A stretch of 64,000 nucleotides of DNA from Microbotryum violaceum (taxonomy: Eukaryota). The stretch spans positions 496,001 to 560,000 of the forward strand of contig CDLV01000004.1 in NCBI GenBank assembly GCA_001244265.2. Reading direction: 5' to 3'. The first letter of the stretch is position 1. Every line of letters starts with the position of its first letter. This document shows, one piece after another, positions 5,594-61,800 of this stretch. The position numbers and the translations under genes are program-made. The notes beneath the pieces are model-generated. The model ran no database searches and was not told the origin of the DNA. It saw only the letters and a list, made by a program, of their open reading frames with translations.

Positions 5594-5608
5594 TGTGTCG
5601 TGGCCAAG

Positions 5609-6156
5609 CGACTCGTCACCCCGACAGCGCCTGATGTCCTCCCTTGGCTGAATCTCGAGTGCTGGCTGTTGAGCCGTCGGGGCCAAGAGAAAAGCGATCC
5701 AGTACAACGAAACGAGCCTCGCCTTGACGCGAGGATATTGACCAGAAACCAGCGACCTTCCTTCCTAAGCCATGCCGTAGATCTTGACCAACGCAAACAA
5801 ACGAACCATTCGACGGAATCCAACACACGGCTTAGGAGTAAAAGGAGAAGTGGCTGAAGCGTAGTCAACAACCGAGCAACAGGAATGAGAAGAGAAAGGG
5901 AAGGAAAATAAGGGGGGAAGGAGAGAGAAAAACTTCACAAAGCCTCCAACGCAAAGACAATCGTACTGGCTTGCCGATCGATCCAAGAACGAAAACCGCT
6001 ACTGCGCAAAGTAGAGAGAGAGAGAGAGAGAGGTGCGCAGCCTTCCACTGCGCAACAAGTTTCAAGACAGTCAGCTTCTAAAATGAAAGAGAAGTCAACC
6101 TCCGAAAAAGAAGGGAGGAAAATGGGAAGGAAGGATTTAACTCGGTCATCACACCG
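5609..6156 (-). repeat. Partial copy of the non-coding poly(A) retroposon also found at 11441-11939
   Basis: Colinear similarity from ACTCGTCACCCCGAC to TTAACTCGGTCATCACACC with 11441-11939. Confidence 0.75.
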
Positions 6157-6394
6157 CGCCATAAGTGCGCCGTAAGAGTCCCTTATCTAGGGTACACTTA
6201 AGCGACACTCAACGCGCGCGCTTTTTTTTTTGTTTAATTAGGCTCATAAATTACCATCCTTTGGGTTGGCTAGAATCACTACAGAAAGAGCTAAAAGAGG
6301 TAATAAAGCAACGACGACAAGCAGCTGGGTGAAAATCAAACCCCTGCGCGCAACGAGTGCTGCGCAGATCAAAACCCGCCGAGCACCTAACGCA

Positions 6395-9300
6395 TGTTGC
6401 AACAAGGACTAAGAGGTACTCCACGGCTCAGCTCCGAGATACACGAGTGAGATGATGAGAATAGCGTGGCTTTGCAGTAACTAACCTAAGAGGTACTCCA
6501 CGACTCAGCTCCGAGATACACGAGTGAGATGATGAGAATAGCGTGGAGAAGGAACCCAGAAGGAAAAAAGACGCAAAGACAAAGATAGGCGCGCGCGCAG
6601 AATAAAGTATTAACCAAGACTAATAGCAATGAGTTAGGCTCTCAGACCCCACTTCTAACACTCCCACCGGTCAAAGAGACTAACGAGACCATTCCAAGTA
6701 GCGCACGAAGTTGATCAAAGCGTTGAAATCCCAAAGGCTTTGTCATAATATCCGCGGCATTGACGTGGGTAGGGCAGTATTCAAGTTTGACCTCGCCAGA
6801 AGCAACCCATTCTCGAACAAACAAATGAGCAATGTCAAAGTGCTTGGTTCGCATGTGATCGACCGGATCCTTGGCGATCTGGATGCATGCGGCGTTGTCT
6901 TCTTGAATGATAGTAGGCTGTGCTTGTGGAATGCCGACATCACCAGCCAAACAACGGAGCCAGATTGCTTCACGAGTGGCTGAGGATGCAGAGAGGATTT
7001 CGGCTTCGGTAATGGATGTAGCGATCATAGATTGTTGCTTCGACTGCCAGGAGATAACGCCGCCAGCGAGCATTGATGCATAGGCTCCCACCGATCTGCG
7101 AGATTCCGGGTCATCCGCAAACGAGGCATCGGAGTAGACCATCAATCGAGTTGTGGAACTGTTTTGATAAAGAATTCCCAAATCGATGGTGCTGTTGAGG
7201 TAGCGAAATATACGCTTGACCGCAGCCCAATTGTCGACAGTTGGACAGGAGTTCTTTTGAGCAACGGCACAAACAGCAATCGCAATATTGGGTCAACATT
7301 GAGTGGACGCGTACTGCAGGGAACCCACAGCCGATTGGTACAATGACACATTGGCAAATGGAGTAGCATCGTTCGAAGCGAGGGTGATTGTCCATGGGCG
7401 TGACTGCACGGCGCTTGGATGGAGAAGCGAAATCGAACTTCTCGAGCATAGTGCGGACATACTTGCCTTGGTGAACGAGGATGTAATCTTTGGTGCGATG
7501 AATTTCGAAGCCCAGGAAGTAGGAGACGGGTCCGAGACGCTTGAGCTGGAAGGCCTTGTGAAGCGATCCGAGCTCGGAGTCCAAGAAGGACTGATTGTTG
7601 GACGCAATGAGACCGTCGTCAACATAGAGAGTGATGATAGCAAACGAAGTGCCCGAATGTTTGATATAGAGGCAAGCATCGGCAGTTGCCCTCATGTAGC
7701 CTCGAGACACCATGAGATCATTGACGGCTCGATACCATTCACGGGGCGCCTGTTTGGTTCCATACATGGAACCCACAAGCTTGAGGCACTTGCCAGGGGA
7801 TTGAGGATGATTCCATCCTTTTGGGTATCGAACATAGACATCCTCGGTCATCTTGCCGTTGAGAAAGGCGCAGTCGAAATTGAACTGTTCGAGATACAGG
7901 CCCTGAGCAGCAGTCAGAGCAATCAAGAACAAAATTGTCAAAGAACGAGTGACAGGAGCGTAGGTGTCATGGTAGTCGATGCCTGGGTGTTGAGCAAATC
8001 CTTGAGCAACAAGACGAGCTTTGAAACGAATGATTTTGCCGTTTGCATCGCGCTTGATACTGTAGGCCCAGATCATGCCGAGTACCCGAATTCCTTTGTG
8101 CCACTTGACTTCCTGAAAGACTCCATGATGATCAAATTGTAGAAGTTCTGAGACCATTGCCGCACTCCAATGGTTGCGATAGGGTGACTTTATGGCTTCC
8201 TCGAATGTCTTGGGTATCTCGATGTCTTCTTTGGCGAACACGGCAGCACAGTAGGCATTGTAGGAAAGCTTGTCGTGGAACACGGGTGGAGTATCCAAGA
8301 CATCCACCATGATAGCCGAAATGATGGGAAGTATATTTTTGCGGAAGTTGAGGTCGACGACGAGAACCAGCAGGAAGGATGTTGGAAGGATCAACATTCT
8401 CGAATTGGCCAGGATTTGGACCAGTGCAAACGATGGCGTAACCTTCACGAGGAGCGAGAGCGACTTCCGCCTCACCGTCGAGTGGTTCTTCTGCATCATG
8501 ATAGTTATCAGGTCCATCGTCGAGTCCATCATTGTTGTCATTGTTGTCATCCTTACAAGGAACGACTGCAAGATACCCCCCTGTTGACCAACTCCAATTG
8601 GAACCACCGGAGGAGGCTGTGGATCCGGCAAAGTTGGATCCACAACAGGTGAAGTTGGTGTAGACGGCAACATATCTGGCGGAGGATGAGGAGGTTGAGA
8701 ATGATGAACGGGATCAGAAGCGTCCGCACGATCTTGAGACGAAGTGACGACGGAAGGAGTCTCAAGGAATGTGACGTGACGCGAAACGTAGACCTGTTTC
8801 GACGATTGGACCCAGACACGGTAGTTGTATTCACCGGAGTACCCGATGAAAACTTCCTGAATGGAGCGAGGTGCAAGCTTGGAGCGATGCTCCTTGGGAA
8901 CGTGGACAAACGCCGTAGATCCGAATGGCTGAAGATGAGCAAGACTAGGCTTCTTGCCGAGAAGAACTTCGATTGCCGTTTTTCCTTGAATACGAGGATG
9001 TGGTCGACGATTGAGAACAAATGTCGCGATGGCCAGAGCATCTGACCAGAATCGCATGGGAAGACCGGAGTTGAGGAGCATTGATCAAACGAGACCCATG
9101 AGAGATCCATTGAGTCGCTCTACTTGACCATTTTGCTCCGGAGTATAGGGGGCCGTGAATTCCACAATGATGCCCTGCTTTTCAAGAAGAGCCCGGAACA
9201 ATGAGTTGTCAAATTCACGGCCATTGTCCGATCTGACCCTCTTGATTTTCTGACCCGTTTGACGCTCGGACTCGGCTTGAAATTTCGACCATGCTTCGAT

Positions 9301-11176
9301 AATCGTCTCAGCCCTCTTGTCCTTTAGCACGATTGTCCATTTAGCCGTCGAATACTGATCCACGATAGCAAGATAGATAGTATCGCCATGGTGATTGGGA
9401 TGTTCGACAAACCCGAGATCAATGAAGACGCGGTAGAGTGCATGAGGCGCTTCGGTACTCTTGTTGGAGAAGGGTGATCGCTTTGACTTGGCCTGGATGC
9501 ACGAAAAGCAAGGAGTAACCTTTTCGTCCTTCAGAGTGATGCCAGTGATAGCTCCGGATTTGACGGCCAAAACGATTGCCGCAGGAGATTGATGGCCCAA
9601 CTTCCGATGTGCTTCCATCAACGTACAGGTTCCAGTGAGACAATTGGCTCCGACCATTGAAGGCGGTGAGGATGACATGATAGGCTGAACGGGAGCTGCA
9701 TCCATGACAAACCCCCGACCAGGAAGCGAGCGCAGAATCGACTTGCCGCGGATGCTGAAAATGAGATTGCTTTGGGGACCAACAGCGTACGTCATCGATT
9801 CCAACAGACGGTCGATGGCGATAAAACCGAATTGAGCACCGGGCATGTAGTAGACCCTCTTAATGGTGATACAAGCGCCATATGAGGTAAGAAACGTCAC
9901 TGAGCCATGACCGGGAGATTCGATTTGAGATTGATCGGCGACAGAAATTTTGAGAGGCTCAGAGACAACGTCCGATAGGACCGACTTGTCTCCAACGCAA
10001 TGGACCTTAGCACCCGAGTCAATGATCCATGGAAAACGTGGCATCGTTCGCAAATAGGAGAAAGTGTAGGTCATCAATGCAGATTCATCTACACCAATGG
10101 CAGCTACGTTCGAATTTGAGTCCGAGGAAGCGGGAGCGCTCGCATCCTTGTTCCTGCTTGGACAGAGACGCCAACCATGCTCGTGTCCCAGTGCTTTGCA
10201 GCGCGAAAAATGTTTGTTTCGGGAATCAGCCATTTCGACGTTCATCAGGAGTTTCGGATAGAACGTGTTCCAATCCATGTGGATGTCGATGTCGGAGGCA
10301 AGGTTCCCAATGATTGAGTAATACTGGGCTGGGAGCGACCAAACGAGCATGCCTGCAAACAGCCAATGCGGAAGCGGAGCTCCGAGGTTCTGAAAATCGG
10401 ACATGGCGATCTTGACCTTGTTGACGAATTCCTTAAAAGGAATATCCCCAGAGTAAGGTTGCGCTAGAGTGTTGAGGAGGTCCATAGTGCGACTCGGGCG
10501 ACCGTGAGAGTGGAGACCACGGAGGGTGTCCCACATCTCGTACGCCGAGGTAAGATGAATCAAGTGAGACATCTGTTCCTCAGAGATCGAATTGGCGATG
10601 TACTTGCATGCCAAATCGTTGCGGCGGATGGCCTGTTCGCGATATTCCGCGACCTTGTCCGCAACTTGAACGCTGGTGAGCCTGGGCGAGGCGTCCGAGT
10701 GCGCAGAACCAGAGCCCCCCCCCCCCCGCCCAAGCCCGCTAAAGCCGGAGGAGGCTGGTTCAACTGGCGCGACGGACGCAGTTGCATGTGCGATAACGAG
10801 CGTGGACCGATAGTCCGCGACAAGGGAGTTGATGGATTGATTGACGACATCCCATACTTTGTCAGCTCGAAGATTGATAAACGCACGTTGTGACCAGCTC
10901 TTGTACCCTTGTGTGTCCTTGAGATACAAGCGATTGTCCGACCCGTTGGGGAAGTCGGATTCGCCCGTTGAGCTCATAACCTGTTGCAACAACGACTAAG
11001 AGGTACTCCACGACTTAGCTCCGAGATACACGAGTGAGATGATGAGAATAGCGTGGAGAAGGAACCCAGAAGGAAAAAAAAGACGCAAAGACAAAGATGC
11101 CTAGGCGCGCGCGCAGAATAAAGTATTAATCAAGACTAATAGCAATGAGTTAGGCTCTCAGACCCCACTTCTAACA
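6395..11176 (-). mobile_element. Ty1/copia LTR retrotransposon 1, full length, degenerate
   Basis: LTRs 10982-11176 (5') and 6395-6660 (3'), TG..CA. TSD ACGCA/ACGCG. PBS GGTTATGAGC and PPT-like GGTGGGAG. Domain order gag, PR, IN, RT, RH. Confidence 0.95.
6642..10977 (-). pseudogene. Copia gag-pol polyprotein with frameshifts
   Basis: WIIDSGA (PR), HRKLGH..CFSC and RSDNGREF..QNGQVER (IN), RFKARLVAQGF and LYVDD (RT), YSDASF..IQEDN..ADIMTK (RH). Breaks near 9083 and about 7370. Confidence 0.9.
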
Positions 11177-12043
11177 ACGCGGACTCCAACGAGCGGTGAG
11201 TACTGCTGCCGCTTCATAACCCAAGATCGGGAGCGAAGATACTCGAAAACCAGGCAAGAGCGCCTAGGAAAAGAAAGGGACAATATACAAAAAGTCACAA
11301 ACGGGAACACCGAGAAAGGAAAATACTAAAACAAGGGCAAAGGAGGGGAGGAGGGGGGACACACCCGAGGGACCAAGAAAGGGGTCGAAGCCAGGGATAG
11401 AGGTCCCCAAAGACTAACAGGCCACAGCCAAGCCCCAGCTACTCGTCACCCCGACAACGCCCGATGGCCCTCCTTGGCTGAGTCTCGAGTGCTGGCTGTT
11501 GAGCCATTGGAAGTCGGGCAAAAAAACGATCCAATAAAACGAACGAGCCTTCTTCCCGATCCATGCCGTAACGACCATTCCATTCGACGAGATCCATCAA
11601 GCGGCTTGGAGGGAAAAGGGGAAGGCGGCTGAAGCATAGTCAACATCCGAGCGAGACACATGGGAAAAGAGAATGGAAAAGGGGAGAGAGAGGAGATAAA
11701 AAAAAAACAGGGGCACTTCACATAGCCTCCAAAAACAATTGACCCTGCTTGCCGATCCAACATCCAAAAACAAAGATTGCCACTGGGCAAAAGAAAGGAA
11801 GAGAGGTGCGCAGCCTTCCACTGGCCAACAAGTTTCGAGATAGTCAGCTTTCAAAATGAAAGTCGACCTTGGAAAAGGAAGAAAGAGAGAGAGAAAAGAG
11901 GGAGGGAAGGAAGGAAAGACTTAACTCGGTCATCACACCTCCCAATCTCGAGCCCCAGGAACAAAACCCGCCCGAGAGAGAAAATCTCGCTTGAACGCTC
12001 TAAGTGCACTGGGGATCGAGGCGGCTTAACGAGTGGTTAAGTC

Positions 12044-15000
12044 TTTTTTTTTTTTTGTAGAACTTATTCATTATATTGCCCCCAATTCCTGTTCCCCCTG
12101 ATTGGCCTACGGAAAAACTAGATGGAAGTCGACGATGATAACACAAACCGCCCGCAAGATGCGAGAAACGGGCCGGTGTCCACCAATCCGATACTTGGGA
12201 TTCAAGTGCCCGAGCCAAGCGGTTGCTCCCCCAGGAGACGAATGAGAGAGAGAGAAAGAGAAAGAGTAATAAAACAATTGACTAACGACAAGAGGCCCAC
12301 CCGCCGTCACTCCCCAACTCGGTCGAGACAAAGACAGGAGATCGACTGCGCAACTACCCTGACCTGCAAAGTCCTAAGTCTATGCTCGGTCACAACAAGA
12401 TGCGGTGGAGGCCCCTCAAAACCTCCACCTCAGCAGTCCCTGGCCCCTCAAAGCCGACTTTCTGCCTGTGTCCGCTGATCCCTCCCTTGACTCAGAACCC
12501 CGAAGCCAAAGAGCGCGAGTCACCGTCGAGTCAATCTCAAATCGCGAGCCGGTCCATGAGCAACGAAGGCAGACCTGTAATAGATGAAAGATGAAAGCGA
12601 GATATTTAGTATACAATGTTTTGTTGGAAGATGAAGCGTGATGGTGTGTGTGTGTGGGGTGTGGTGGGGGGGAAATTGAACGCAGCCTCTACTGCCCTTG
12701 CCCGCCCCTTGCTCCTCCCGCCCTCAACTTCATCCTCTCCTCCAGCACCACCCTCCTCCTCTCCACGCTTTCAATCATCGTCCCGTGCTTCTGCATCCTC
12801 CATCTCCCACTGCTGATCATCTCCAAAACCATCCCCGTGAAGATCTTGATCATCCAGCCCGCCCCTTCCTGTTCGCTGAGCTTGGCCTTGAGCTTGGGAG
12901 GCCAAAGAGCTGTTGCAGTGTCGTGTACTGGGCGTCCTCGATCGTGTCGCACCCGAGTGCGTCGCAGAGCACGTCCCTTGCCGCGATCCAGACGTTCCGC
13001 GAGTCAACGCAGCCAAAAAAGTAGTGGTCGGTGTTGTCCACCGGCGCTTCGCAGACGAGGCACGCGGGAGAAGTGTTGTGATTTTGTTGATGTTGCAGCT
13101 TGCGCGTTGAGGTGAAGCGGAGAATCAGCTTGAAACAAACTTCCCTCTCCCTCGCCGTCAGTGCCTTCGAGTTGACCACCTTCCAAAAGCTCCTGAGGTC
13201 GTCCGGCTGCGGTGGTCCCTTGAGCCCGAGCGTGTTGGTAAAGGCCTTCACGTTCAGGACCCGGCGGATGTGACGGATGGTGTACGGTCAAGCCATGTTC
13301 AGCAGCTTGTACTGGCTCGCCTGCTGTGGAAGCACCGGGTCCAGAAGGCGCTGCTTCATTGTGAAGCGGGCCATGGGCTTGGGGAGAATCGCCTCGAGCG
13401 GTGCGCTGGTGCCAATCCGGAGGCAACGTTGAGCCGTCCCGCCGCCACCGCCACCGCCAAGGGCGTGTTCTTGTGTCGATCGACAGTGAACCGGTACCAG
13501 GCCGCGATTGCCAGTCGATGCGGGAGCCCGCGTCAATCGTACTCGCTGTTGTTGCCGAGCACATCCGCCGTCGGCGTCCAAAGGTGAAACCCCCCACCCG
13601 CATACAACTCGCGCCGGTAGAGATCCGCCACCTTCGGGTAGCCTTGGAGACGAAGGTAGTCAGGTATATGAACCGCGTTGATGGCCTGTCTCCCTCTGAT
13701 GGGGGTGTGGAGGCTGCCGAGCAAGGTGGGAAGCGCGAGCAGGTTTGCGGTGGTCAAGGTCCTCGGGTTGACCTGCGCGTCTTGCTGTTTCGGAACCCCC
13801 AATGCTGCTCGCCATCGGGATGGAGGTCGCTGGGGATGGGAGTGGATGGATGTGGCCAGAGATCGGTGGCCAGGTCAAGGTCCGACTGAGCTCGCTGGAG
13901 TGCCGTGCGCGCAAGTCCTTGCCAGATCGCGCCCGAACCGTCCCAGATCCGTGCCGCAACCGCGTCCACGACGTCCTGCATCCTGATCACCCCGAGTCCC
14001 CTCTTGAGCTTGGCTGTGAACACAATATCTCTGCCGTAGCTGGTCCTGCCCTTGCCCCCACGGACGAAATCGACGAGCATGTCATCGAGCTTCTTGACAA
14101 CTTCGGGCGGCGGGATGTTGGCTGCAAGGAAGTGCAGGATCTTGGGGATGGCGTACCGATTGACGTAAAAGGCACGGGTGTGGTGTGTGAGCCAGCGATG
14201 CTGAACCCCTTCCAGCGCCGCCTCGAGGCGTTCGATGAGATTCGCGTAGGCGAGTTTGGTGTCGCCGCTCGGGTCGAAGGGGAGGCCGATCCACTCGAGC
14301 GACTCGCCTGCGGCCTTGACGACGAGCGGGTGTTGCCCCGGGTCCCAGCGGCATCCTATCGGTAGGACGACCGTCTTGTCCGTGTTGAGCCGGCCATTCG
14401 TTGCATACCTCCAGTCGAGCGCCAGGTCATTGAGCAGATTGAGTGACTCCAAGCCCGCGACAGCGACAACAATGTCATCGGCGAAAGCAAGTGATGTAAT
14501 GGCGCGGCTCTGTGGGTACGGATGAAGTGCAGGTATGGACAGATTCAGCGCGATGTTTCGACGGTGTAGAGCATCCAGAAACGGCTGAAACACGATGTCC
14601 CAGACCGACGACGACGCCGGGTCCCCTTGGCCGAGCCCACACGTCAGTCGCACCGGCGCCGTTAGGAACCCATTGATGATGTAGCGGGCCGAGGTCGAGT
14701 CACCCGAGTAGAGCATCCTCAGCACGCGAAGAAAGGTGGCAGGAGCGCCCAGAGCGTCGAAGATGGCAAAGATCCAGTCATGCTCGACAAGGTCGTAGGC
14801 GGATGATTGGTCAAGAGACAAGAGCGTGGCCACGGGGAACTCGATCCTGCGCGCGCCAACTTCCTCGATCAGGAGACGAAGGTGTAGTGCAGCGTCAGCC
14901 AATCGGCGGTCCTTGATGAATCCGTGCTGCTGCGGCCGGAGGAGATCGGGTAGAATTTGGTTCAAACGGGCGACATAGACCTTGGTAAAGCTCTTGTAAT

Positions 15001-15487
15001 CGCACTCGCGCAGGGTGATTGGCCGGTACGACGAAAGTTCGGCGCAATCGGCATTCTTCTTGTGTCGCTTGAAGATGAGGCGCACGAGTTCTTGGCCCTG
15101 CTTGGGAGAGAGTGAGCCTCGCTCTATCATCGCGTCGTAGGCCTTGGTCAGCACCTTGGCCCACGCCTTGGGTGCGGTCTGGTAGAGTTCGTAGGGCACG
15201 CCCGACGGTCCCGGCGATCGCCCCGGGTGCGTCGTCCCGATCGCGGCCACGACCTCGTCCTCGGTGATTGGTTGCTGGAGTAAGTCGATCTGCAATTCCG
15301 AGAGTCGGCGCAGAAAGAGAGGATCCGAGCGCGGGTTGTCGCAAGTCCGCGCCGCCCTGATCGGCGCGAGGAATTCGTCCCGAAGTCGGTCGACGCGGTC
15401 CGGGTCACGAGGCTTGATGTGGTAGAGGCGCTGGAAATGCGCCTGCGTGTGGTCAAGAGCGACATCAATGTCATGCGTTAGCTCTCC
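12044..15487 (-). mobile_element. Non-LTR retrotransposon (L1-like LINE) copy A, 5'-truncated
   Basis: T13 at 12044-12056. RT motifs SPGPSG, YRPITL, QHGF, GLGQGDP, LAFADD. C-terminal CLVC..HYFFGC zinc finger. Frameshifted. Confidence 0.9.
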
Positions 15488-21094
<5,607 letters not shown>

Positions 21095-27539: not shown

Positions 27540-30500
27540 ACGACAGAAAGTCGGCCCCATCCCAGAACTTGTGTACATGATAGGGTTCCACTTCGCTGCG
27601 GCTTGGAATCGTGCAAAGTGCAGTGGTGAAAAGCGCCGGGTACTATCAAGCACTGCGACTTGCGGGTGACAATGTTTTCGAATCGGTCGTCACTGCCGCA
27701 GGCCTAAAAACTTGTTGGCGGTTGAGGTTACCCCAACTGGATAAGGTGCTGATATCGCTCCGAGCACAGCGATGGGTCGCGCTAAAAGTCTGTGCTTGCG
27801 ACCACTCGGGCTTACGTGCTCAACTCTCCAAAGCCGCTTGCACTGTGATTTTTAGCGAGAGAGGTGATGTCATGTTGCAGCGGGGCTTGAGAAACCGAAA
27901 GGGACCGTGTCGTAACTAACAACTCGGTCACTATTGAAATGTATCAAAGTAAGAAAGAGACATTAAAGTGTAAATAGGGAAGGTGGGCGGGAAGCTTAAA
28001 GGACCGAGAGATCGCTTTGCGAGGCGTAGCGATCGGGGATGATAAGTAACAGGGCAACTATGACAAAAGCACGGCGTAGCATACCTTTGCGAGGCGTAGC
28101 GCAGGCGTTCAACACAATTGAACGAGCGTCCGGGAAGACTCCGCGGGAGGTAGCCTATGGGATGCTATGCGTTAGCTTGGTGCGCCCAACTAGGGCGATC
28201 CAGGAAAGGGTGGAGATCGTACAGAGAGGTCGCAGAGAACTACTGCAGGGCAAGTGAGCTATGAGTACGTCGTGCAACTAGCCGAGCGTATTCTGAACAC
28301 TTACCTCGAGCGCGTGGCAGGCGTGCGTGCGTCGAGGGTTTCTGGAGAGCAGCGGGCTGCTGTAAGGTCCTGATGAAGGAGACTGCTGAGTGAGCGACGG
28401 ATCGCTTGGATGAGGATCCAATGTTGGAGGACCAACTGACCCTTGGCAGAGGGTGGCAGTGCTGGAGCAGCAAGCTGATCCCAGAACGTGTCGACGGTGC
28501 GGAACCGTGGAGAGGGTAAGCGGCGCGGACGCGAGGCACTCGCAGAGAGGCTGAGGGCTCTGAGGAACTGACGGAGAGACCTAGGACGCTGAGCGCTCCG
28601 GAGAGGCTAGGAAAATACGCTGAGCGCTCCTGAGAGGCTAGGATCGGCTGACGCTGAGTCAGGACTAGAATGCACGGATGCGCGCTTGAACAATGAGCGT
28701 GGAACTCTTACCGCTAAAGCTGAACAGACAAAAGACCGAGTCGGACTCTTCCACTCCGAAGGGATGTAAGCCAACACGCCTCCGGATAGTCAACAGATAC
28801 CGGTCCAAAGTACACCCTGATGTATCGATAGTGGCCATCCGCAAATTGGAAGAGGTGTCGGCCTGAAAGAAGGTGTCTGATCGGAGCCCACAATATCCTG
28901 TAGGATTCGAGCTATTCTATCAGAGCTCTCCGCTACGTCGACCGAGCCAAGACAGCTTACTCTAGAGCTTGATGGAGCACCCTGCGTTTGTATATACGGA
29001 ACATCTCGTCATTGCCTTTGTCCGCCCCTTGGACTTGAGTGGGAGGCGGATGCCACAGCATTAGCAACAGCCAGCCCACCGTTGGCAAAATAGAAGCCCC
29101 AGGCGATACTCACTTTCCACTTTAGGAAGGAAAGCTATAACGACCAAACCGCCATGGTTTTCACGTTTGAGGAATCCGGCGTTGACCCCTAGAGACATAT
29201 ACACAGGATGGGCCGAGGCAGTCCCAGTTCCGATCGACAAGACAGTTGAATCCGAGCTGGTGTCAATGCGAACGGCCACATCGGTCGGGTCGTCGAGAGT
29301 GTCCTGCGGGCGGTTACTAGTCAGTTCTCTTGATGGACTTTGCGCCGGGCGATTTCAACATCCACCCAGCGCTTACTTGCATCTCCCACGCTTTGTCTGC
29401 GATATGGGGCGCTCCATATACCCGTTGCTCCTGGCCGTTTGATTTGACCTCGAACACCTTCATGGGCCGCAGATGCTGGTGACCGCAGAATACGGGATTG
29501 GAGAGAAGATGTTGGAGCACATGATGCGCGTCCTGACATCGAACGTATGTTCCTGTGAATAGAGGGTTACTAATCGGCTCGAACCTGCTTGTGTCCCTGT
29601 CCTGGACTGGCAGCGCTTACCAGCTGCAAAAATGGAAGTTCAGCATCACTATTCGACCACCCTAAGTCCTCCGCAGTTACGATGAATTTTTCTTCGCGCC
29701 ATTCAGTGTGATGAGCTAAGTAATGGAGGAGCACGATTTAGAGTTAGGTGGAAGATTGGAGAGCTCAAAACACTTGTACAAAGCTCACCATAGGGTATTT
29801 TTTCAATTGTAGATCTGAGTTGAAGCCTGTTGCTGAAGGCATGCAGTGGTCCGCCTGCGGAGTGATATCTCGGGACTTAGATGGCGGATAAGACCCCGTT
29901 CGAGCGTCCACAACTTCGGCCGAACATACCTGAAGAAACGAGTTGTTGAAAGTGATCATCGCATTGAATAGAGACTCGGACATTGAGCGAGTCAACAGTG
30001 CATACTGATAATCCTGTTTGTCCTGACACGGATAAAAGACGTTGTTCGGGTCGAACAAATGGGCATGCGGAACCGTTGGAGGCGGAGTGTGTTTGTCACA
30101 AAGTCGTCCGTCGGCTCGGCGAGCCCAGCCTGCGAGGGGAGGTTGTTCTACTCGAAACTTGCTCTTTTGGCGAGCGTCCCACTCGGGCTGGTCATCGAGG
30201 GTAGGATTATGCTCAGAGTCTGATGAACTGTCGCTTGAGGAGTCATCATCGTAGTTGCTACAGCTCGAGTTGAAGCCATCGACGTCGCAGTCGGGCCAAC
30301 CGTTTCTGGGGTTCTTCTGTCATCTGCGGCGTCAGCGAAAGAACTCTTGGCGAGAGCGCTGTTGTCTAAGAACTTGGAGGTGACTTCGTTCAGCAGCCAA
30401 TGACGTGGGTAGTGCGCGGTTGAGCGGTCGGGGCCTTCCGTGAACGTGCAAATGTGCTTCGAGATTGCGCACATGGTGGGATGATCTCTGACAACCAGCA

Positions 30501-42500: not shown

Positions 42501-42911
<411 letters not shown>

Positions 42912-43151
42912 TCAGTGCGCTAGCATACTACACATATGAGAAAAGGGGTACCCACCTAGAACCTCGAGTCAGTGAGCTGGCAAAAGCCAAGGGAGGTTCT
43001 AGGCGCGCGCAAGCTATTCAACTAAGCCAAAAGTTCTATTGCCTTCCATTGTACCTCGGGCAAAGGCCTCAGGCCTTGCACCCTCCCCTCCATCCTCTTC
43101 TTCAACTCCCAACGCCAAAGCGCCTCTGTCCCCGTCCCCACCAAGTTTTCA

Positions 43152-43682: not shown

Positions 43683-46600
43683 TCAATTGAGAGACGTTGG
43701 CAACAGGCTGGGTGAACGACCTAGGACCACCTCAAACGGCGATTTGTTTGTTGAGGCGTTGACGCTTGCATTGATTGCAAACTCAATGTTGACCAGATAT
43801 CGGACCCAATTGTTCTGCTGCTTGTTGACCACGGCTCGCAAGGCTTGAATGGCGGTCTTGTTGGTCCGTTCGCTACGGCCGTTGGTTTCCGGGTGGAACA
43901 ATGTAGACATGGCGAGTCAAGTGCCCATCAGATTGTGATACGCGCGCTAGAAATGCGATGTAAATAGCTTATCCCGATCGGAGACTATCCTTGTTGGCGG
44001 TCCAAAGAAGCGGTGCCATCCCTCATGAAAACGTTTGGCTATGTCCTTGGCGGTGTCCGCGGCCAGGCTAGGTATCAAGCGCGTGTAGCCCGATAAACGA
44101 TTGGTGATCGTGAGGAGCATGTCGAACCCCTGGCTCTTGGGCAGGGGGCCCACAAAATTGAGAGCCACCTCCTGCATCAGCCCATCCGGCACAGCCAACG
44201 CATGCGATACCCCCAACGCGCCCGTGGTTGTTGCTTTGGTACGTTGACATACATCACATGTTGAGACATAGGCGTCGCATGATGTTCGCAGCCGCGGCCA
44301 GAAGAAAGTCCGAGACACCTGATGGAAGGTCTTGCGCGGGCTGAAGTGACCCAGCGCATTGTGAGCGATGTGTAAGATGTCCTCCCGAAGCTGTGGCACC
44401 GCAGGTACAACCATCCTACCCTCGAAATACAGCACTCCATCCACACAAGAGAACCCTGGCGACGAATCGAGATTGCGCTTGACCTGCTGGCAAAAGGGAT
44501 CGGAGTCATAGCCCTCCACAAGGCGGCCCCGCAGCTGTGTGTCGATGTCCATCTCTGAAACCGCCTGTACGGAATCAGGCTCCCCCTGCGGGAAAGAGTA
44601 CCGGCTCATCGCGTCTGCCACGGTGTTCTCGCCTCCCGGAATGTAGGTGATGTAGAAATCGTAGTCGGCTAGACGTTCGACCCAGCGGGCCTGACGCTTT
44701 GATAGATTTTCCTGCGTCTTGAGGTACTTCAGTGATTCATGGTCAGAAAGGACATGGAAGTGGACACCCATCAAGTTGACTCGCCACTGACGCAGGGCGT
44801 CCACGACCGCCAAAAGCTCCTGTTCATGGGTCGGGTAGTTGACCTGTGCACTGATGTACTGACGAGACCAATACGCCACCGGGTGTGCCTTGCGCCAATC
44901 CCGCCCCTGAAGCAACATGGCGCCTATCCTAACGTTACTTGCATCCGTCATAACCCAGAGGGGATCAGCGGAATCCGTGCGGTCGATTGGCTTGAGACAT
45001 AGCAGCGAGGTGACAATGGCCTTTATGGCGTTGAAGTGTCGCTCTTGCTCGGCACCCCACATGGGTCGGACATTGGCGTTCTTCGACGTTAAATCCGCCA
45101 GAGGTTTGGTATGTTGGGCCAGACCATTGATGAACTTGCGCAAGTATTGAACGAGGCCCAGAAACCCCCGAAGCTCTGTGACAGTCCGCGGACGCGGCCA
45201 CCCCACGATTTGCTCCACCTTCGACTGATCTGCTGCAATCCCGTTTCGCGAAATGACATGCCCCAAAAAGTCGCAAGACGTTCGAAAAAGTTCGGTCTTC
45301 TTTGGCAAACAATACAGATTGGCCCGCCGCAGCGCCTCGAGTACCTCCTTGACGTGGGTTTGATGATCCTCCATGGTATCCGAGAAGATAGTGATGTCGT
45401 CAAGGTAGGCGAAGCAGCTCTTGCCAATGAGACTAGACAGAGCCTCATTGACCCGGCGTTGATGCGTTGCCGGCGCGTTCGACCGGCCCATCGGCATGAC
45501 AACCCACTCGAAGAGCCCCCAGGGGGTTGCCACCGCGGTCTTTGGTATGTCCTCCTCGGCTATCTTCGTCTGGAAAAAGCTGTTCGTCATATCGATCTTG
45601 GACCAGAAGGGCGCCCGAGCTGCAACGGCCAAAATCTCGTCCGGCAGGGGAAGCGGTGTGCGATCTGGTACCGTTGCTGCATTGAGGATCTGATAGTCGT
45701 TGACCCAACGCGGCATAATTGACGGGTCGGTGTCCATACCCTTCTTGGGAATGATGAAGGCCGGCAAGGAGTATTCCGACGATGATGGGCGAAGACGACC
45801 GGCCGCGAGGTGTTCATCCAGTAAGCGTTGCCACACCGCACGCCAGCGCATCGGAGTGCCGTAGGTTGGTTGCCGCGGAGTCTTCATACCAGGTTTCAGC
45901 GCGATACGATGGCGGACCTTTTACTCGTACTGTAAGACCGGCGGGATGTCTGCCGGAAATCGGTCAGAGAACTCCTTGCGAAATGCGACTTCAAGTGCTC
46001 GCAATTGCGACTCTTCCGCTTGCTGCTCTTCGAGATGAGCGAGACAGGCCCGAATGCTCGCCTGAACCGCACTCTCCGACCATTCCCCCTTCTCCCCCCG
46101 GTGCATCAGATCGATACGCTTGCCGGGTAGGGTTGGATCGGGGGCCAGCACTCGACGCCTTTTGCAGTCGACCAGGATATTGTGTCGCTTTAAGAACGGT
46201 CGCCCCAACACCACTTTCAACAACGTCAATGGCGCAATCTTCAGAACGACGTGCTGGGTAGATGTTGTGGGAAATTAGTAAAGGGTCAGCGGTCCAGAGG
46301 GACTTGTGGCATTGGGAAGTTGGCGCGCGCGTAGTGTGGCGCCGGATGGAGGCAGATGGCGGTGTGGCGTATTGATTGGACTCAGAGGTGGCTTGCACAC
46401 GGATACTATCTAAGGCTCTGGTCTCGTTCACTCTCTCCTTCTTCTTTAACACACACTCGATATCTATCTCGCCCATTCGCCTGCTACAAGTTGATTGACC
46501 TTGGCAATACTCTATCTCACAATAGGTCATCTATGAACGCCGTGTAGCTACAGCAAATCTTCATTCATTCACTGGTACTCCAAGTCCAAATCCACAACAG

Positions 46601-48701
46601 GTTATGAGTTCGACGACTACCACCAATGTATCGAATGAAGGGGACGTCAAGATCACCAAGCTCGGTAAAGATAACTACGAGCTGTGGTCGATCCGAGTCA
46701 ACGCATTCCTCGAAGGTTGTGGCTACAGCAGTGTACTTCAACACGGAGCTGACCGACCATCGAGTATGGATGTGCAAGCATGGAAGACTCTCCATGGCAT
46801 CGACCCAAGTCTAGAGGAGGGCAAGATCCCGACTCTAATCACCAAGTGGGATCGTAGTGCGCGCGCAATCATCATCTCGTGCCTCGATGATTCGAATCTC
46901 AAGATGGTCAAGAGCAAGTCGCTCTCAGCCAAAAACATCTGGGAAAAGTTGAAACAACACCACGAAGGGAACGCTGATCCGTTCAAGATTTGCACGCTAC
47001 TCTACGAGATTTCGAATGCGTCGTACGATGAGGACACCAACCTCGGCGAGTTTCTCCAGGGCATCACGGACAAGGTCGATCAACTCGAAGATCTCGGCCA
47101 AAAGTTCAAGGATGAAGCCATCGTCGCGTTTATGCTTCAAGCTCTACCTCCCTCATACGAGATGCTCAAGCAAGCTATAAAGCTCAGCGATAAGTGCTCG
47201 GTTGACTACGCCGTCAATCGACTTACCGACGAGTACAGTGAACGCAAGCTCACTGGCAAGTACGACAAATTACTCAAGAACGCGGGAGCGTTAGCGGTTC
47301 GCGAAGGCACGCAAGTCAAGCGTGATCCGAACTGCATTTGTCGTGGTTGCAAGGGAACCGGCCATTACCAAATCGATCCGGAATGTCCCAAGTACGATCC
47401 GAACGCCAAACGCGGTCGTAACAAGAACCACAGCAACAAGAAGAAGAAGCAACATAAGCATTCCAAGGGATCTGCGGATTCGGAGGAGTCGGCTTCTTTT
47501 GCGTTGGTGGTCAAGTCTCTCGAGGAGCCATTCGCTTCACATCAACGTCGCAAATAGGGTGTCACAGAACGACCAGAGTGAGATCTGGATCCTGGACACC
47601 GGTGCAAGTCAGCACTACATTGGCAACGCAAGTCTGCTTACCAACCGTCAACATGGAAGTCTGAACGTTCAAACCGCAAGCGGTCAGGTAGTACATTGCG
47701 ACACGTATGGTACGGTACGGTTCAAGTTGAGAAGCGGGGCCTCGCTCTCACTTTTGAACGTCTACCATCTCCCGGGCGCTCCGGTGAACCTCGTCTCGAC
47801 TCGTGCTCTATACCGATCAGGAGCTAGTTGCGGATAGGAAGATGGCAGGGATGTCATGACGATCAAGATCAAAGGGCTGACCGTAGCAAAGACGCTGAAC
47901 GGTACCGGTTACACCCTCGACTTTACGCGCATTGTCGAGGACCAAGCTCATGTTGCAACTCGTGCGACAGTGGGAGCGCCTTTGATGGAATGGCATCGTC
48001 GCTACGGCCACATCGCCGTGAGCTCGCTCAAGGAGCTCGTCAAGTCAGGCGCTGTAGATGGACTAGTTCTCACTGACGAGAAGGTCCACAACTGCGAGCC
48101 CTGCATCAGTTCCAAGTCTCGCGTATCGAAGTTCTCCGAGTTGGTTACTCATGTCAACAACGTCCTTCAACGCGTATTCATGGACATCGGATTTGTCACA
48201 GAAGATCAAGTCGATTTTCAAGGTCGAAAGGCGTACCTGGCTATTGTAGACCAGTACTCGACTGCGAAGTGGACATTTCCGTTGAAGACCAAGTCGGCCA
48301 AAGAAGTCACTTGCGTATGGATTGCATTTCGACATGGTGTCGAGAAGATGACTGGTCGCAAAATCAAGTGCGTTTGCACGGACAATGGCAACGAGTTCAC
48401 CAACAAGCTCTTTGGCACAGATTTCCAAAGTCAAGGAATTCTACATGAGACCTCAGCACCGTACACCCCACAACAGAATGGAACGGTTGAACGCTTCAAT
48501 GGCCGTTGATGGCGATCGTTTGTGCGGTCCTTGCAGCCTCCAAGCTGTCCTGGAAGTACTGGTCTTATGCGATGGAGTACGCCACGTTCGTCGCGAATCG
48601 GGTCCTACACTCCAAGTTGGATGGCAAGATGGCTTACGAAGTTTTCTACGGAAAGAAGCCCAAGGTCTCGCACTTTCGTCCGTTTGGATTGACCGTCTTC
48701 G

Positions 48702-50543
48702 TGTAAGGCCCAGCGTTGGGCCTTGCAGGTGACAGGATACGAGTATGTATTCCAAAGAATAAACTGGTCGGAAAGGAAGAGAGGCCCTACTTTCCGGCAA
48801 TGCCTAAGGCCAGACGCGCATCGGGCCTTTGAGTAACTACAGAGTATTACACTCTCCACCACCTGAACCAAACCCTGCCTCCCTTATCTACTTCTTCTCT
48901 TCTTCATCCTCCTCTTCTTTCTCAGATCCTCCCAGCCATTCATTCTCAAACGCCTCGTCCAATTCCGAGTCACTTGAGTCGGAACCCCACGGTTGACGGT
49001 ATGCCTGGTCGCCCATGAAGTTGAGTTGATCCAGGTGGTCCCCAATTGTCCCGCCTGTCGTCTTTGGGCACTCGCGAATACTATGCCCCATTTCCCGGCA
49101 GTTGAAGCAGCGACCCTCATCAATGCACTGTTGTCGGGCCTCAGCTGTCAATGGTGTGCGCCTTGCCATGTTTGATTTGAGATCCCGTGGCGAGCGAGTG
49201 ATACGGGAGTTGGTGACGGACACTTGACCTTTCCACTCGAGTCCCAGCAAGGAAGCGACCGCCGTCATGTGTCCAATGAGCGAGTTCACTGTGAATGTTG
49301 AGAGTGTAAAGCCGGCAGTTGAGGTGGTACGCGCATACAGTAGGTCGTTGGCGTGATGTAGCAAGTGTCGTTTGAATTGGTCGTCATTGATGAACTTTCC
49401 CCCGTCCTTGCCAATACCCAAGGTTGCGCGCCGACTCGCTAGCTTCGCAGCGTACGTAGTGAAAGAATCCGACCCTTGTCGCGTACGGTAGAAGTCGTGC
49501 TCGGCGGTGAGCACAAAGCCCGAGTCCAGGAACCGTTCCCTCACCTCAGCCGCAAAGGCATCCCATGTCGTCAATGCCTTCAGTTCATCCCTGTGCTGAT
49601 TCCACCAAATTTTCCCTTCGCCCTGCATTTTCATGCCAGCTTCCCTGATTTGTCGAACGACCGTCAACGTCTCATCGGAACGCTTGAGATCCCCGAATGC
49701 CTCGATTGCGTCCTCGCAGTCGCCTAGCCAGAGGATGACGTCCTCCGCCGTAAACGGTGCCTTGAGCTCTGGCATGTGGAGTTGTGTGGGCGCTCGGTCC
49801 GACATCTTCGGCATCGACTTTGGTACGAGATGCGGCGGAGCGTCCTTGTTCGGTGGGGGTCCCTGATCCTTGCTGTTTCTGGTTTGTGGGGCCAGATTGG
49901 AAAGCGGGGCGTCGGCGACGGATGGGCGCGGGCGGGTGGCGGCGATTGCGTGCGAAGCAAAAAAGAAACGAAACCGTGCGGGCGAGCGACGGAGGGGCGC
50001 GTTCGGCGAGCGACGGTGGCGGTCGCGTGCGAAGTGAAAAGAAAAAGGGCGGACGAGCGACGACGGTCGCGTAAACGGCGAACAACCTCAGCAGTTGTGT
50101 GTGACGGCGAACGACCAAGTCGTGTAAGCAATGCGGCGAACGTCTTGCGACGTATGATGTGGACGGCGAACAGAGACGGCTCTGTATGACAAACGACGCG
50201 AGTCGTGTGGGGGTGCGGCGAACGTCTTGCGACGTGTGATGTGGACGGCGAACAGAGACGGCTCTGTATGACAAACGACAAGTGTCGTGCGGGGTGTGCG
50301 GCGAACGACCTGCGTCGTGTGTACGTCGAGCCGGTTTGAAGCGGTGACGGAGTGTTCTTGGCGAATTCTTGTATCGGATGTCAAAAAAAAAATGTAAGGC
50401 CCCAGCGTCGGGCCTTGCAGGTGACAGGATACGAGTATGTATTCCAAAGAATAAACTGGTCGGAAAGGAAGAGAGGCCCTACTTTCCGGCAATGCCTAAG
50501 GCCAGACGCGCATCGGGCCTTTGAGTAACTACAGAGTATTACA
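48702..50543 (-). mobile_element. Non-autonomous gag-only LTR element
   Basis: 150/151-bp LTRs 50393-50543 and 48702-48851, TSD CTTCG/CTTTG, PPT AGGTGGTGGAGAG, single gag ORF, tandem repeats of about 83 bp in the leader. Confidence 0.92.
48888..49814 (-). CDS. Retrotransposon Gag with CCHC zinc knuckle (308 aa, open)
   Basis: AEDVILWL..GKIWW..TWDAFAAEVRERF..RQGSDSFTTY (Retrotrans_gag-like), CFNCREMGHSIREC, acidic tail. Confidence 0.85.
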   Translation of the reverse strand: MPKMSDRAPTQLHMPELKAPFTAEDVILWLGDCEDAIEAFGDLKRSDETLTVVRQIREAGMKMQGEGKIWWNQHRDELKALTTWDAFAAEVRERFLDSGFVLTAEHDFYRTRQGSDSFTTYAAKLASRRATLGIGKDGGKFINDDQFKRHLLHHANDLLYARTTSTAGFTLSTFTVNSLIGHMTAVASLLGLEWKGQVSVTNSRITRSPRDLKSNMARRTPLTAEARQQCIDEGRCFNCREMGHSIRECPKTTGGTIGDHLDQLNFMGDQAYRQPWGSDSSDSELDEAFENEWLGGSEKEEEDEEEKK

Positions 50544-53122
50544 CTTTGCGCAAGTCCCCAAGTCGAAACGCTCTAAGCTCAAGCCAACTTCAGTCAGGGG
50601 AACGTTCATCGGGTATGACAAAGAGTACAACTATCGCGTGCTTGTCGACTCCGATTTGGAACACAAGGTGGTCATCACACGCGACATTGCGGTCTTGAAC
50701 CTGCAACCAGAGGAGGTCCGTGCACCAGAGGTCACGACTTTGCTCAAGGGGCCAGATGAAGATGTGGGTCCTGTCTTGGAAGGCAATGACGCCGGAGACG
50801 AACTTCAGGGTGAGGTTGCTGTAGAGCAGATAGCCCCTGCTCGTCCGAACCGTCCTCGTTGGGAATACAGATATCCCGCGGTTAGGGGTCGAAACCCAGG
50901 CAGGTTTGAGGAGATCGACGCAGGCAACAAGATTCATCAGCGTACTCGTGGCCAAAGACGCATCGCGGAACAACAAGGTCTCTTTGTCACAGATATACCC
51001 GAACTTGATCCCGAACCACCCATCATGTCTGGCTATGCAATGATCAGCACGGATCGACCGGCCGTACCCAGCAGCTACGAAGAAGCAATGAATAATGTCA
51101 AAGCGGACAAGTGGAAGGAAGCTATCCAGGACGAACTCAATGCGATGGATCGTCATCAAGTCCTTGCAGACTCGGATCGTCCCCACGGTGCTTGCGCTCT
51201 CGGTCAAAGTGGGTTCTTGCTCGTAAGGAGAACGCTCAAGGAGAAGTCATTTGTTACAAGGCTCGATTGGTCACGCAAGGTTTTGCACAGCAATCTGGCA
51301 TTGACTACAATGAGACTTTCGCTCTTGTTGCTCGCTCTACAACGATTCTCTTTCTCATCACCATTGCTGCATCCCAAGGACTGTGCCTCGAACAATTCAA
51401 TTACGACTCAGCGTTTCTGAACGGAACGATGAAGGAGATGGTCTACATGAAGTATCCCAAGGGTTGGGATCGTCCTCAGCTTGGCCAAGTCCTTCGTCTT
51501 GTCAAATCAGTGTATGGAACGAAGCAAGCTCCTCGAGAATGGAACTCGGCAGTCAACAAACTCATGGTTGCTTGTGGTTACTCGCGATCTGACGCCGATT
51601 CATGTCTTTACATCAAGCGTGTTGAGGAGATGTTCATCTACATTACTCTTTACATCAATGATGGACTCGCTGCCTCGAACAATCAGACGTTTCTGGATTC
51701 GGAGATCCAAGCTTTCAACAAGGTGTACCAACTCAAGCGACTTGGTCCTGTGAAGGTGTTTCTCGGTCTCGAATTCTTGCGCTTGTCCAAGTTCATCTTC
51801 GTGCACCAGTCCAAGTTCATCAGGAGCCTTGTCGCTACGTATGGCGGATATCACGGATCGAAGCACCCAGCGAAGGTCCCGATGGAGCCCAGGTTGAACA
51901 TGGAACACTCGGTGGAGCTGTTCGATGACATTGCACTCTACCAGTCAGCAGTGGGAGCTTTGCAGTATACTGCGCATCGTGCTTGTCCCGACATTGTCAC
52001 TTCGGTTCGTGCAGCAGCTTCCAAGGTTTCAGCTCCTACCCAGACCGACTGGATCGCGGTGAAGAGGATCATCCGCTACTTGCAAGGTACCATTGACTGG
52101 GGACTCAAGTACAACCTCGAGGGTTTGACTGTGTTCGAACTCTACTCAGATGCCTTGTGGTGAGACGACATGTTGACTGGCAAGTTGATAGGAGCGTTCA
52201 TCTTGATCATGGCAGGCGCAGCAATTTCTTGGCAGAGTAAGCAGCAATCGATGGTTGCGACTTCGACTACTGAGGCCAAGATCTTGGCTGTTTCCGCAAC
52301 AGCAAAGGAGGCCATGTGGCTTCAACGCCTGGCTGCGGATCTCAAGATTCAACAGCCTGGATCTACACTTCTCTGGGAGGACAATCAGGCGGTGATTGCA
52401 ATCGCACAGAACCCGGCTCATCATGGTAAGACGAAGCACTACAGTGTGCATCACTTCTACATTCGCGAGCGAGTTACGACTGGCGACATTCGAATCAAGT
52501 ATTGCAAGACAGGAGCCATGACTGCGGATTGTCTCACCAAGCCGCTCGCTCGCAACTTGTTCGAACTTCATTGTGATGGATTGGGGATGGTATCCCTTGG
52601 AGCCTTGACCAGTGGGAGTGTTGTGGGAAATTAGTAAAGGGTCAGCGGTCCAGAGGGACTTGTGGCATTGGGAAGTTGGCGCGCGCGTGGTGCGGCGCCG
52701 GATGGAGGCAGATGGCGGTGTGGCGTATTGATTGGACTCAGAGGTGGCTTGCACACGGATACTATCTAAGGCTCTGGTCTCGTTCACTCTCTCCTTCTTC
52801 TTTAACACACACTTGATATCTATCTTGCCCATTTGCCTGCTACAAGTTGATTGACCTTGGTGATACTCTATCTCACAATAGGTTAGTTGTAATACATTTA
52901 AACACACACTCAATATCTATCTCGCCCATTTGCCTGCTACAAGTTGATTGACCTTGGCAATACTCTATCTCACAATAGGTCATCTATCAACGCCGTGTAG
53001 CTACAGCAAATCTTCATTCATTCATTGGTACTCCAAGTCCATATCCACAACAGTAGACCATCGGCCATTCAGGGTATGAAGTGGCACACACACAAATTCA
53101 GTGATGGGATGCGAGACCCTGA

Positions 53123-55913: not shown

Positions 55914-61800
<5,887 letters not shown>

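Follow-up and report, generated by a model that had tools for sequence, protein, structure and literature searches.

How does one long terminal repeat (LTR) of a retrotransposon come to carry a block with the borders of an intron that its partner LTR lacks? This question is raised by copia 1, a Ty1/copia-type element on the minus strand of a 64,000-nucleotide (nt) stretch of Microbotryum violaceum DNA (GenBank assembly GCA_001244265.2, contig CDLV01000004.1, positions 496,001 to 560,000), here called the window, whose own numbering is used throughout. The first-pass annotation had described an extra block of 77 nt present only in the 3' LTR of copia 1, had pointed out a similar case in a second element, copia 2, and had argued from both for a selected feature rather than slippage. 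The answer tentatively favoured here is that the block may be the second half of a two-unit, long LTR form with the anatomy of an intron derived from a leader duplication, and that the 5' copy of this form would have collapsed to the short form during or after reverse transcription. Two parts of this answer must be kept apart: (i) the long form is rather probably older than this insertion; and (ii) the use in splicing of the donor at the junction is possible, if somewhat doubtful.

The extra block and its counterpart in copia 2

Comparison of the two LTRs of copia 1 (Table 1) confirmed that the extra block is exactly 6409-6485, is restricted to the 3' LTR and consists of a 16-nt spacer followed by a 61-nt repeat of the unit that precedes it. 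The two copies of this unit in the 3' LTR (units A and B) are identical but for 1 of 61 positions; beyond the block, 3 substitutions and two small indels (4 and 2 nt) separate the LTR pair. In the 5' LTR, the single unit (11056..10996) is followed, without gap, by TCGTTGTTGCAACA and the primer-binding site (PBS) GGTTATGAG. A repeat search recovers these three unit copies with a spacing of 77, and the unit pair is the sole internal repeat found by blastn in 5600-10900; TRF (score of at least 80) lists the corresponding array of copia 2 and not that of copia 1.

Copia 2 is a distantly related element with the same LTR asymmetry, namely one unit in the 5' LTR and two in the 3' LTR. Its 3' units are identical at 73 of 78 positions and different at 5, and its LTR pair has 5 differences in ~257 positions outside the units. 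The reverse transcriptases (RT) of the two elements are 53% identical over 165 residues and their Gag proteins 22%, and no blastn cross-match was found between their LTRs at E<=1e-3. This bore out the earlier description of a second copia element with unrelated LTR sequence, the same 3'-LTR layout and a spacer that starts with GTTAGTT. Since the two elements belong to different families without LTR similarity, the motif at their junctions has not been inherited via a recent common sequence. Furthermore, both are single insertions with 5-bp target-site duplications (CGCGT/TGCGT and GTAGA/GTAGA, respectively) and, in consequence, the asymmetry does not come from a crossover between two elements.

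Table 1. Features of copia 1 and copia 2, in window coordinates (ORF, open reading frame; TSD, target-site duplication)
Feature	Positions	Strand	Basis or remark
Copia 1, Ty1/copia-type LTR retrotransposon, complete	6395..11176	minus	LTR pair, Pfam order and ORFs
Copia 1 ORFs	9085..10992, 7111..9081, 6642..7181	minus	ORF list
Copia 1 5' LTR, short one-unit form, 195 nt, TGTTAG...GCAACA	10982..11176	minus	LTR comparison
Copia 1 3' LTR, long two-unit form, 266 nt	6395..6660	minus	Internal repeat at LTR positions 115-175 and 192-252
Candidate intron GT...AG, 77 nt (spacer and unit B)	6409..6485	minus	LTR comparison
Unit A, 61 nt, ends CTCTTAG, begins directly after CT-rich tract	6486..6546	minus	Repeat search; would be exon 1 or R-like leader (R and transcription start putative)
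Spacer GTTAGTTACTGCAAAG, 16 nt	6470..6485	minus	Between units A and B
Unit B, 61 nt, second unit copy, ends CCTCTTAG (acceptor-like, CTCTTAG end)	6409..6469	minus	1 mismatch to unit A
Copia 1 3' LTR tail TCCTTGTTGCAACA, 14 nt	6395..6408	minus	Places the block 14 nt from the LTR end
Copia 1 PBS GGTTATGAGC	10962..10981	minus	Directly after 5' LTR; gag ATG inside
Copia 1 polypurine tract, end GGTGGGAG	6661..6668	minus	Adjoins 3' LTR
Copia 1 TSD, upstream copy CGCGT	11177..11181	minus	Sequence
Copia 1 TSD, downstream copy TGCGT, 1 transition	6390..6394	minus	Sequence
Copia 2, distantly related copia element	46263..53052	plus	TSD GTAGA on both sides; same LTR asymmetry
Copia 2 5' LTR, one unit	46263-46599	plus	LTR comparison; unit 46448-46525
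Copia 2 3' LTR, two units	52619-53052	plus	LTR comparison
Copia 2 unit A, 78 nt	52804-52881	plus	Repeat search
Copia 2 extra block, 97 nt	52882..52978	plus	Spacer 52882-52900 (GTTAGTTGTAATACATTTA, 19 nt) and unit B 52901-52978 (78 nt)

The junction and the intron-like anatomy of the blocks

In both elements, the junction between unit A and the spacer reads TAG/GTTAGTT (the slash marks the end of the unit). The 10-mer TAGGTTAGTT is the longest word common to both junction regions and the only one common to the two spacers, and it covers precisely the span of a splice donor; past their first 7 nt, the spacers are unrelated. On both strands of the 64 kb, GGTTAGTT occurs twice, both times at the junctions of copia 1 and copia 2. 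By itself, this count is ordinary (1.13 occurrences are expected, and at least 2 are found in 30 of 100 shuffles); it is the placement that matters. A third GTTAGTT, at 27914-27920, stands in an unrelated context. Octamers with at most one mismatch to AGGTAAGT (AG/GTAAGT) and with a fixed GT, here called donor-like, number 21 in the ~128 kb of the window's two strands (1.6e-4 per position), and the presence of two of them at one structural position is not due to chance.

As the junction is common to both families far beyond chance, plain slippage with random filler is a poor explanation for it and, since, in both families, the unit stops at TAG and the filler opens with GTTAGTT, a junction-constrained two-unit form that predates insertion is favoured. 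Taken at face value, the recurrence of the same architecture and decamer in a second family points to a constrained, transmitted LTR feature rather than to two private accidents. Such accidents would consist of a tandem duplication of each 3' LTR after insertion, with 16-19 nt of filler added by slippage or by the repair of nearby breaks; the product would be functionless and only the short LTR would be transmitted. This explanation agrees with the absence of the block from both 5' LTRs and with the short form of the only other LTR seen in the copia 1 family (found in a public sequencing run, X17, treated below). It also agrees with the divergence of the copia 1 units (1 of 61 positions), which is similar to that of the LTR pair (3 substitutions in 195 nt) and would make the duplication no older than the insertion, and with position 31 of the copia 2 unit, which is T in both 3' units and C in the 5' unit, as fits a mutated unit that was duplicated later. 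Nevertheless, it would require two independent TAG ends and GTTAGTT filler starts, at ~4^-10 for a fixed register by our own arithmetic, of a motif present nowhere else in the window; besides, the copia 2 units, at 5 of 78 positions versus 5 of ~257 in the rest of the LTR pair, have diverged more than it predicts, a comparison blurred by TCG hot spots. Private accidents are, in our view, quite unlikely.

The junction might, alternatively, be a signal for the formation of the transcript 3' end at the end of R, and not a donor, in which case the second unit would be a U5-side repeat. A tripartite 3'-end motif of the type TAG..TAGT..TTT is known from yeast, and the vicinity of the end of R is where a poly(A) signal should lie; TAGGTTAGTT includes TAG as well as TAGT and is followed, in copia 2, by the AT-rich TGTAATACATTTAAA. 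But the copia 1 spacer is not AT-rich and has no TTT part, the short LTR would be left with no signal at all, and the donor match (7 of 8 positions of AG/GTAAGT) is more specific. We consider this alternative very unlikely.

Regarded as candidate introns, both blocks start with GT, end with YAG (TTAG in one and ATAG in the other), lack ATG and carry YTNAY motifs 27-47 nt before their 3' end; among these, copia 2 has TTGAC at 27 nt, although such weak motifs are common by chance. TAG/GTTAGT matches 7 of 8 positions of AG/GTAAGT in both elements, this being the general consensus. The pyrimidine-rich TAG (YAG) end of the second unit appears acceptor-like. The first-pass annotation had likened the block to a fungal intron in size, with a GTTAGT start and a YAG end, and this likeness stood: excision of the block leaves exactly the short LTR. 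Block lengths of 77 and 97 nt fit small fungal introns, to judge from other basidiomycetes (a published figure for Microbotryum was not found): those of Cryptococcus average 65 nt (PMC5851062), and those of a Glaciozyma gene measure 48-60 nt (PMC4100274).

In both elements, unit A and the tail reproduce the layout of the 5' LTR, so that excision would restore the unduplicated sequence. The units start directly after a CT-rich tract, at the end of which fungal transcription is expected to start and, hence, they probably lie near the transcription start, roughly in R or the leader. The position of the copia 1 unit, 14 nt from the LTR end and after the CT-rich tract, likewise argues for R/U5 rather than U3. 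According to the favoured explanation, a two-unit long form, (i) the leader, that is, the unit, would have been duplicated with a 16-nt spacer between the copies; (ii) spacer and second unit would make up a short leader intron, with its donor at TAG/GTTAGTT and its acceptor at the TAG of the second unit; and (iii) removal of this intron, by splicing or by recombination between the repeats, would yield exactly the short LTR.

Regarding the source of the spacers, neither has a further copy in the window at <=3 mismatches. With the PBSs, they share just GGTTA (by eye). The LTR tails were considered as a source and set aside, because their 8 of 14 (copia 1) and 8 of 12 (copia 2) matches at chosen offsets are not significant given the number of offsets tried. 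A telomere repeat, a transfer RNA (tRNA) loop, a copy of U1, the 3' end of a long interspersed nuclear element with a long target duplication, and a transposon footprint were all rejected on sequence grounds alone. Rfam gave no match in either copia 3' LTR region at E<=1.

Asymmetric LTRs from a single template

In the reverse transcription of LTR elements, the minus-strand U3-R-U5 serves as template for the plus-strand strong-stop, from which the 5' LTR is in turn made. Both LTRs of a new copy thus come from one template and, therefore, a 3'-only state is not transmissible: it must originate during the final steps of reverse transcription or once the copy has inserted. The selected 5'/3' bias that the first-pass annotation saw in the 3'-only placement was consequently not supported, as the two LTRs share their template and two elements fall on the same side with a probability of 0.5 without any bias. 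Its wider claim of a selected feature rather than slippage survived only in part: the shared junction makes slippage with random filler a poor explanation, but selection for the 3' LTR found no support.

If the two-unit form was the one inherited, its 5' LTR could have lost a repeat through three different routes: (i) a template switch between the units during the synthesis of the plus-strand strong-stop; (ii) plus-strand transfer between two complementary DNAs (cDNAs) of different form within one particle; or (iii) a later deletion between the 61-nt repeats. That 2 of the 2 copia elements of the window are asymmetric suggests a form prone to collapse. Shared mutations do not separate the gain from the loss of a unit.

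LTR asymmetry and internal repeats are not a general copia trait. None of 21 LTR pairs from distant metagenomic copia loci had a length asymmetry or an internal repeat of at least 20 nt, and the same script detects both cases of the window; the control is a rough one, as several of its loci are one element recovered from sister assemblies, and RT identity does not exceed 40% in any of them. Relatives amounted to 80 loci in metagenome contigs (all with <=40% identity), none in viral contigs and 1 distant locus in prokaryote genome contigs, a set too distant to serve as more than a general control.

Asymmetric LTRs have been found in 26 of 88 proviruses of human immunodeficiency virus 1 (HIV-1), for which the authors propose misalignment and strong-stop transfer between the two cDNAs of a particle (PMC9278108). 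As here, one LTR differs in length in spite of the single template; however, the usual deletion in HIV-1 extends into the 3' LTR of defective proviruses, whereas in copia 1 and copia 2 it is the 5' LTR that is shorter, and by exactly one repeat and its spacer. The whole arrangement could be a by-product of reverse transcription with no role in splicing: the unit would be R, an aberrant first strand transfer or a re-copying of the leader would give U3-R-spacer-R-U5, and the junction would reflect a preference of the process or a common short template. In favour of such a by-product, the left edge of the unit is in both elements the end of the CT-rich tract, a natural end point for the strong-stop if the start-site rule applies; the spacers are alike in length (16 and 17-19 nt); and reverse transcription is known to yield asymmetric LTRs (PMC9278108). 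Yet no path of strand transfer could be derived that would insert 16 nt of foreign spacer, neither spacer is matched by any other sequence of the elements or the window apart from the GGTTA shared with the PBSs, and their lack of relationship past 7 nt excludes a single common template. A by-product of this kind is judged unlikely.

Contigs of four public runs (X1, X9, X13 and X17) were aligned to 5600-10900. A contig of X17 reads U3, one unit, tail and PBS, that is, the short 5' LTR of the copia 1 family in another organism; this LTR is neither for nor against a side bias. None of the 8 joints listed for the four runs skips 6409-6485, and the contigs that enter the LTR from the gag end stop 28 and 46 letters in, inside the unit, where the short and the long form are not separable. 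Two further measures were set aside: (i) spacer coverage from contig depth bins, as there is one depth per contig and the result ranges from <0 to >1 according to the flank depth assumed; and (ii) counts of fits to two places (27, 3, 2 and 0), as an equal signal could stem from the (CT)n run at 6004-6041. The other runs lack the insertion and, hence, do not confirm this copy, which leaves room for an assembly artefact in the form of a falsely duplicated stretch; nevertheless, the spacer is a unique, non-repetitive sequence, point changes tell the units apart and the same architecture occurs in a second element with different sequence, and such an artefact is scarcely credible.

A more elaborate version of the two-unit form was also considered. 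Basidiomycete genes often need an intron for good expression, and a retrotransposon normally loses the introns that are spliced from its genomic RNA. An intron located in R, whose body is a copy of the upstream leader, might be proof against this loss: (i) strong-stop cDNA made from 5'-spliced RNA would consist of unit and tail; (ii) it would anneal to the unit copy within the intron, in the still unspliced 3' R; and (iii) its extension would re-copy the spacer and the first unit, so that the progeny would regain the intron. If the cDNA landed on the first unit, short LTRs would result, and mixed landings within a particle would give asymmetric elements like those of the window. We hold this version to be highly improbable.

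Several observations weigh against a transmitted two-unit form with a working intron. To begin with, the 5' LTR of X17 is the only other readable LTR of the copia 1 family, and no second long form of either family was seen. That the units are nearly identical (60 of 61 and 73 of 78 positions) speaks for recent duplications or else for homogenisation by template switching, the latter being an added assumption. In copia 2, 5 of the 6 TCG sites of the 3'-LTR units are mutated (to TTG or CAA) and 0 of 3 in the 5' unit (46448-46525), a pattern that the two-unit form does not predict; the interior of the element is not depleted in TCG (299 TCG and CGA versus 305 TTG and CAA), and hypermutation seems to have focused on the short tandem repeat. 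The search for a source of the 16-19-nt spacers in the elements and the window yielded just scattered 9-11-mers elsewhere. Moreover, the short LTR of copia 1 reads TAG/TC(G), without AGGT, so that its donor lies wholly within that spacer; copia 2 does have TAG/GT, yet its donor hexamer GTTAGT again depends on the spacer. As to the splice signals, T at position +3 of the donor is suboptimal with regard to the general consensus GTRAGT; a CTRAY branch motif is missing from the block of copia 1, which offers just CTCAC and CTCAT, 39 and 47 nt before its 3' end; and no published splice consensus for Microbotryum or its class was found in the literature.

Genomic setting and known systems

Copia 1 shows all the marks of a Ty1/copia element: its ends are TG...CA, it is flanked by a 5-bp target duplication, and it has a PBS after the 5' LTR and a polypurine tract before the 3' LTR. 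According to Pfam, the upstream ORF contains Retrotran_gag_2, Pol_BBD, gag_pre-integrs and rve, and the downstream ORF contains SH3_retrovirus and RVT_2; integrase precedes RT, in the order gag, protease, integrase and RT of Ty1/copia (Pseudoviridae-like). The polyprotein is broken by one in-frame stop and one frameshift, and the closest proteins are annotations from Microbotryum silenes-dioicae and M. intermedium, with 73-95% identity over parts of the query. The PBS, which we take to be of the initiator-tRNA-Met half type, is of a type that recurs in distant copia loci of fungi. The start codon of gag is, in both copia families, part of the PBS GGTTATGAG (10975-10981, minus; 46600-46606, plus) and the ORF starts 5 nt past the LTR and, in consequence, the leader consists wholly of LTR sequence.

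Contigs of X1 (8), X13 (2) and X9 (1) break from the window at 6393 and then read GGACTCCAACG, which in the window is the sequence just outside the 5' LTR of copia 1. They thus jump from 6393 to the far flank, which indicates an empty site where the duplicated target sequence is present only once; the insertion is polymorphic and restricted to the source lineage. Among 20 public runs, none of them recorded as RNA, a fraction of at most 0.47 of the sampled words of copia 1 plus flanks was present. Between the X1 contigs and the window copy, the changes were A>G (41), T>C (41), G>A (17) and C>T (13), so the window copy is enriched in C-to-T and G-to-A changes relative to the contigs of the other run. 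This excess is consistent with the TCG-directed hypermutation reported for the genus Microbotryum (PMC4469406). The flanks of the element (5604-6155 and 11434-11939) are 66% similar over ~590 nt and, hence, copia 1 sits within a diverged repeat.

As regards copia 2, the leader of its 5' LTR holds the start of a short upstream ORF, CTATGAAC (46532-46546), at a place where the 3' LTR reads CTATCAAC (52985-52999). Direct repeats of 243 nt, 95% identical, flank it (42838-43080 and 54910-55152), together with ORFs for gypsy-type RT, RNase H and integrase on the minus strand; copia 2 looks to be nested inside an older gypsy element. In turn, its interior (48709-50545) contains two direct repeats of 145 nt, 99% identical and separated by 1692 nt, as well as an 82-nt tandem array (50132-50318); together, these repeats and the array could represent a small nested insertion. 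Nearly all of the window is transposon sequence. At 12314-19230, an element whose RVT_1 reverse transcriptase is encoded on the minus strand lies in two head-to-tail copies (period of ~3453 nt, 76-92% identical). At 55943-61605, there is a gypsy-type element whose pol frame is split into several pieces and whose LTRs are 99.4% identical over 358 nt and, therefore, point to a young element.

Among known systems, introns born by duplication are close in anatomy. Rogers' model is said to derive introns from tandem (segmental) duplication, and a potato RNA-dependent RNA polymerase case has reportedly arisen in that way. The creation of introns in one step by tandem duplication has been shown experimentally (Hellsten et al., 2011; PMC3265369). 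In such introns, the end of the first copy provides the donor and the end of the second copy the acceptor, and splicing restores the prior sequence, just as removal of the block restores the short LTR. Here, however, the donor lies in a non-duplicated spacer of 16-19 nt, without AGGT in the short LTR of copia 1, whereas in an intron born by duplication an AGGT inside the duplicated segment supplies both splice sites; the host is a retrotransposon LTR, not a gene; and splicing is putative.

Tandem repeats are also found in the U3 enhancers of retroviral and retrotransposon LTRs, where they are contiguous, lie upstream of the transcription start and vary in copy number. They are, like the units, head-to-tail repeats of tens of bases within an LTR; unlike them, the units lie at the 3' end of the LTR, with a spacer and splice-like borders. 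In human T-lymphotropic virus 1 and foamy viruses, a splice donor is located in R, likewise within the LTR and so in both LTRs, but it pairs with far downstream acceptors to give subgenomic messenger RNAs, whereas the candidate donor and acceptor described here are both within the LTR. Spliced LTR-contained transcripts, with introns inside the LTRs that average 1303 bp, have been described in maize from long-read data and are presented by the authors as the first such evidence (bioRxiv 10.64898/2026.05.08.723830). Those introns, too, lie within the LTRs of LTR retrotransposons; they are found in long LTRs that give rise to non-coding, LTR-only RNAs, in contrast to the fungal candidate, which measures 77-97 nt, derives from a leader repeat situated 14-73 nt before the end of the LTR and is known from its DNA.

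Should the arrangement have come about only as a by-product of reverse transcription or of repair, its common junction would still point to a sequence preference that has not been described. If, on the contrary, the long form is passed on and its junction functions as a donor, then (i) the LTR of a fungal retrotransposon would harbour an intron that derives from a copy of the element's own leader; (ii) duplication-born introns would have been caught young in a sequence that is reverse-transcribed every generation, which would bear on the origin of new introns; (iii) the collapse of repeats could distort the dating of insertions from LTR pairs; and (iv) the finding would bear on how retrotransposons are expressed in basidiomycetes, which depend on introns and are armed with RNA interference and hypermutation.

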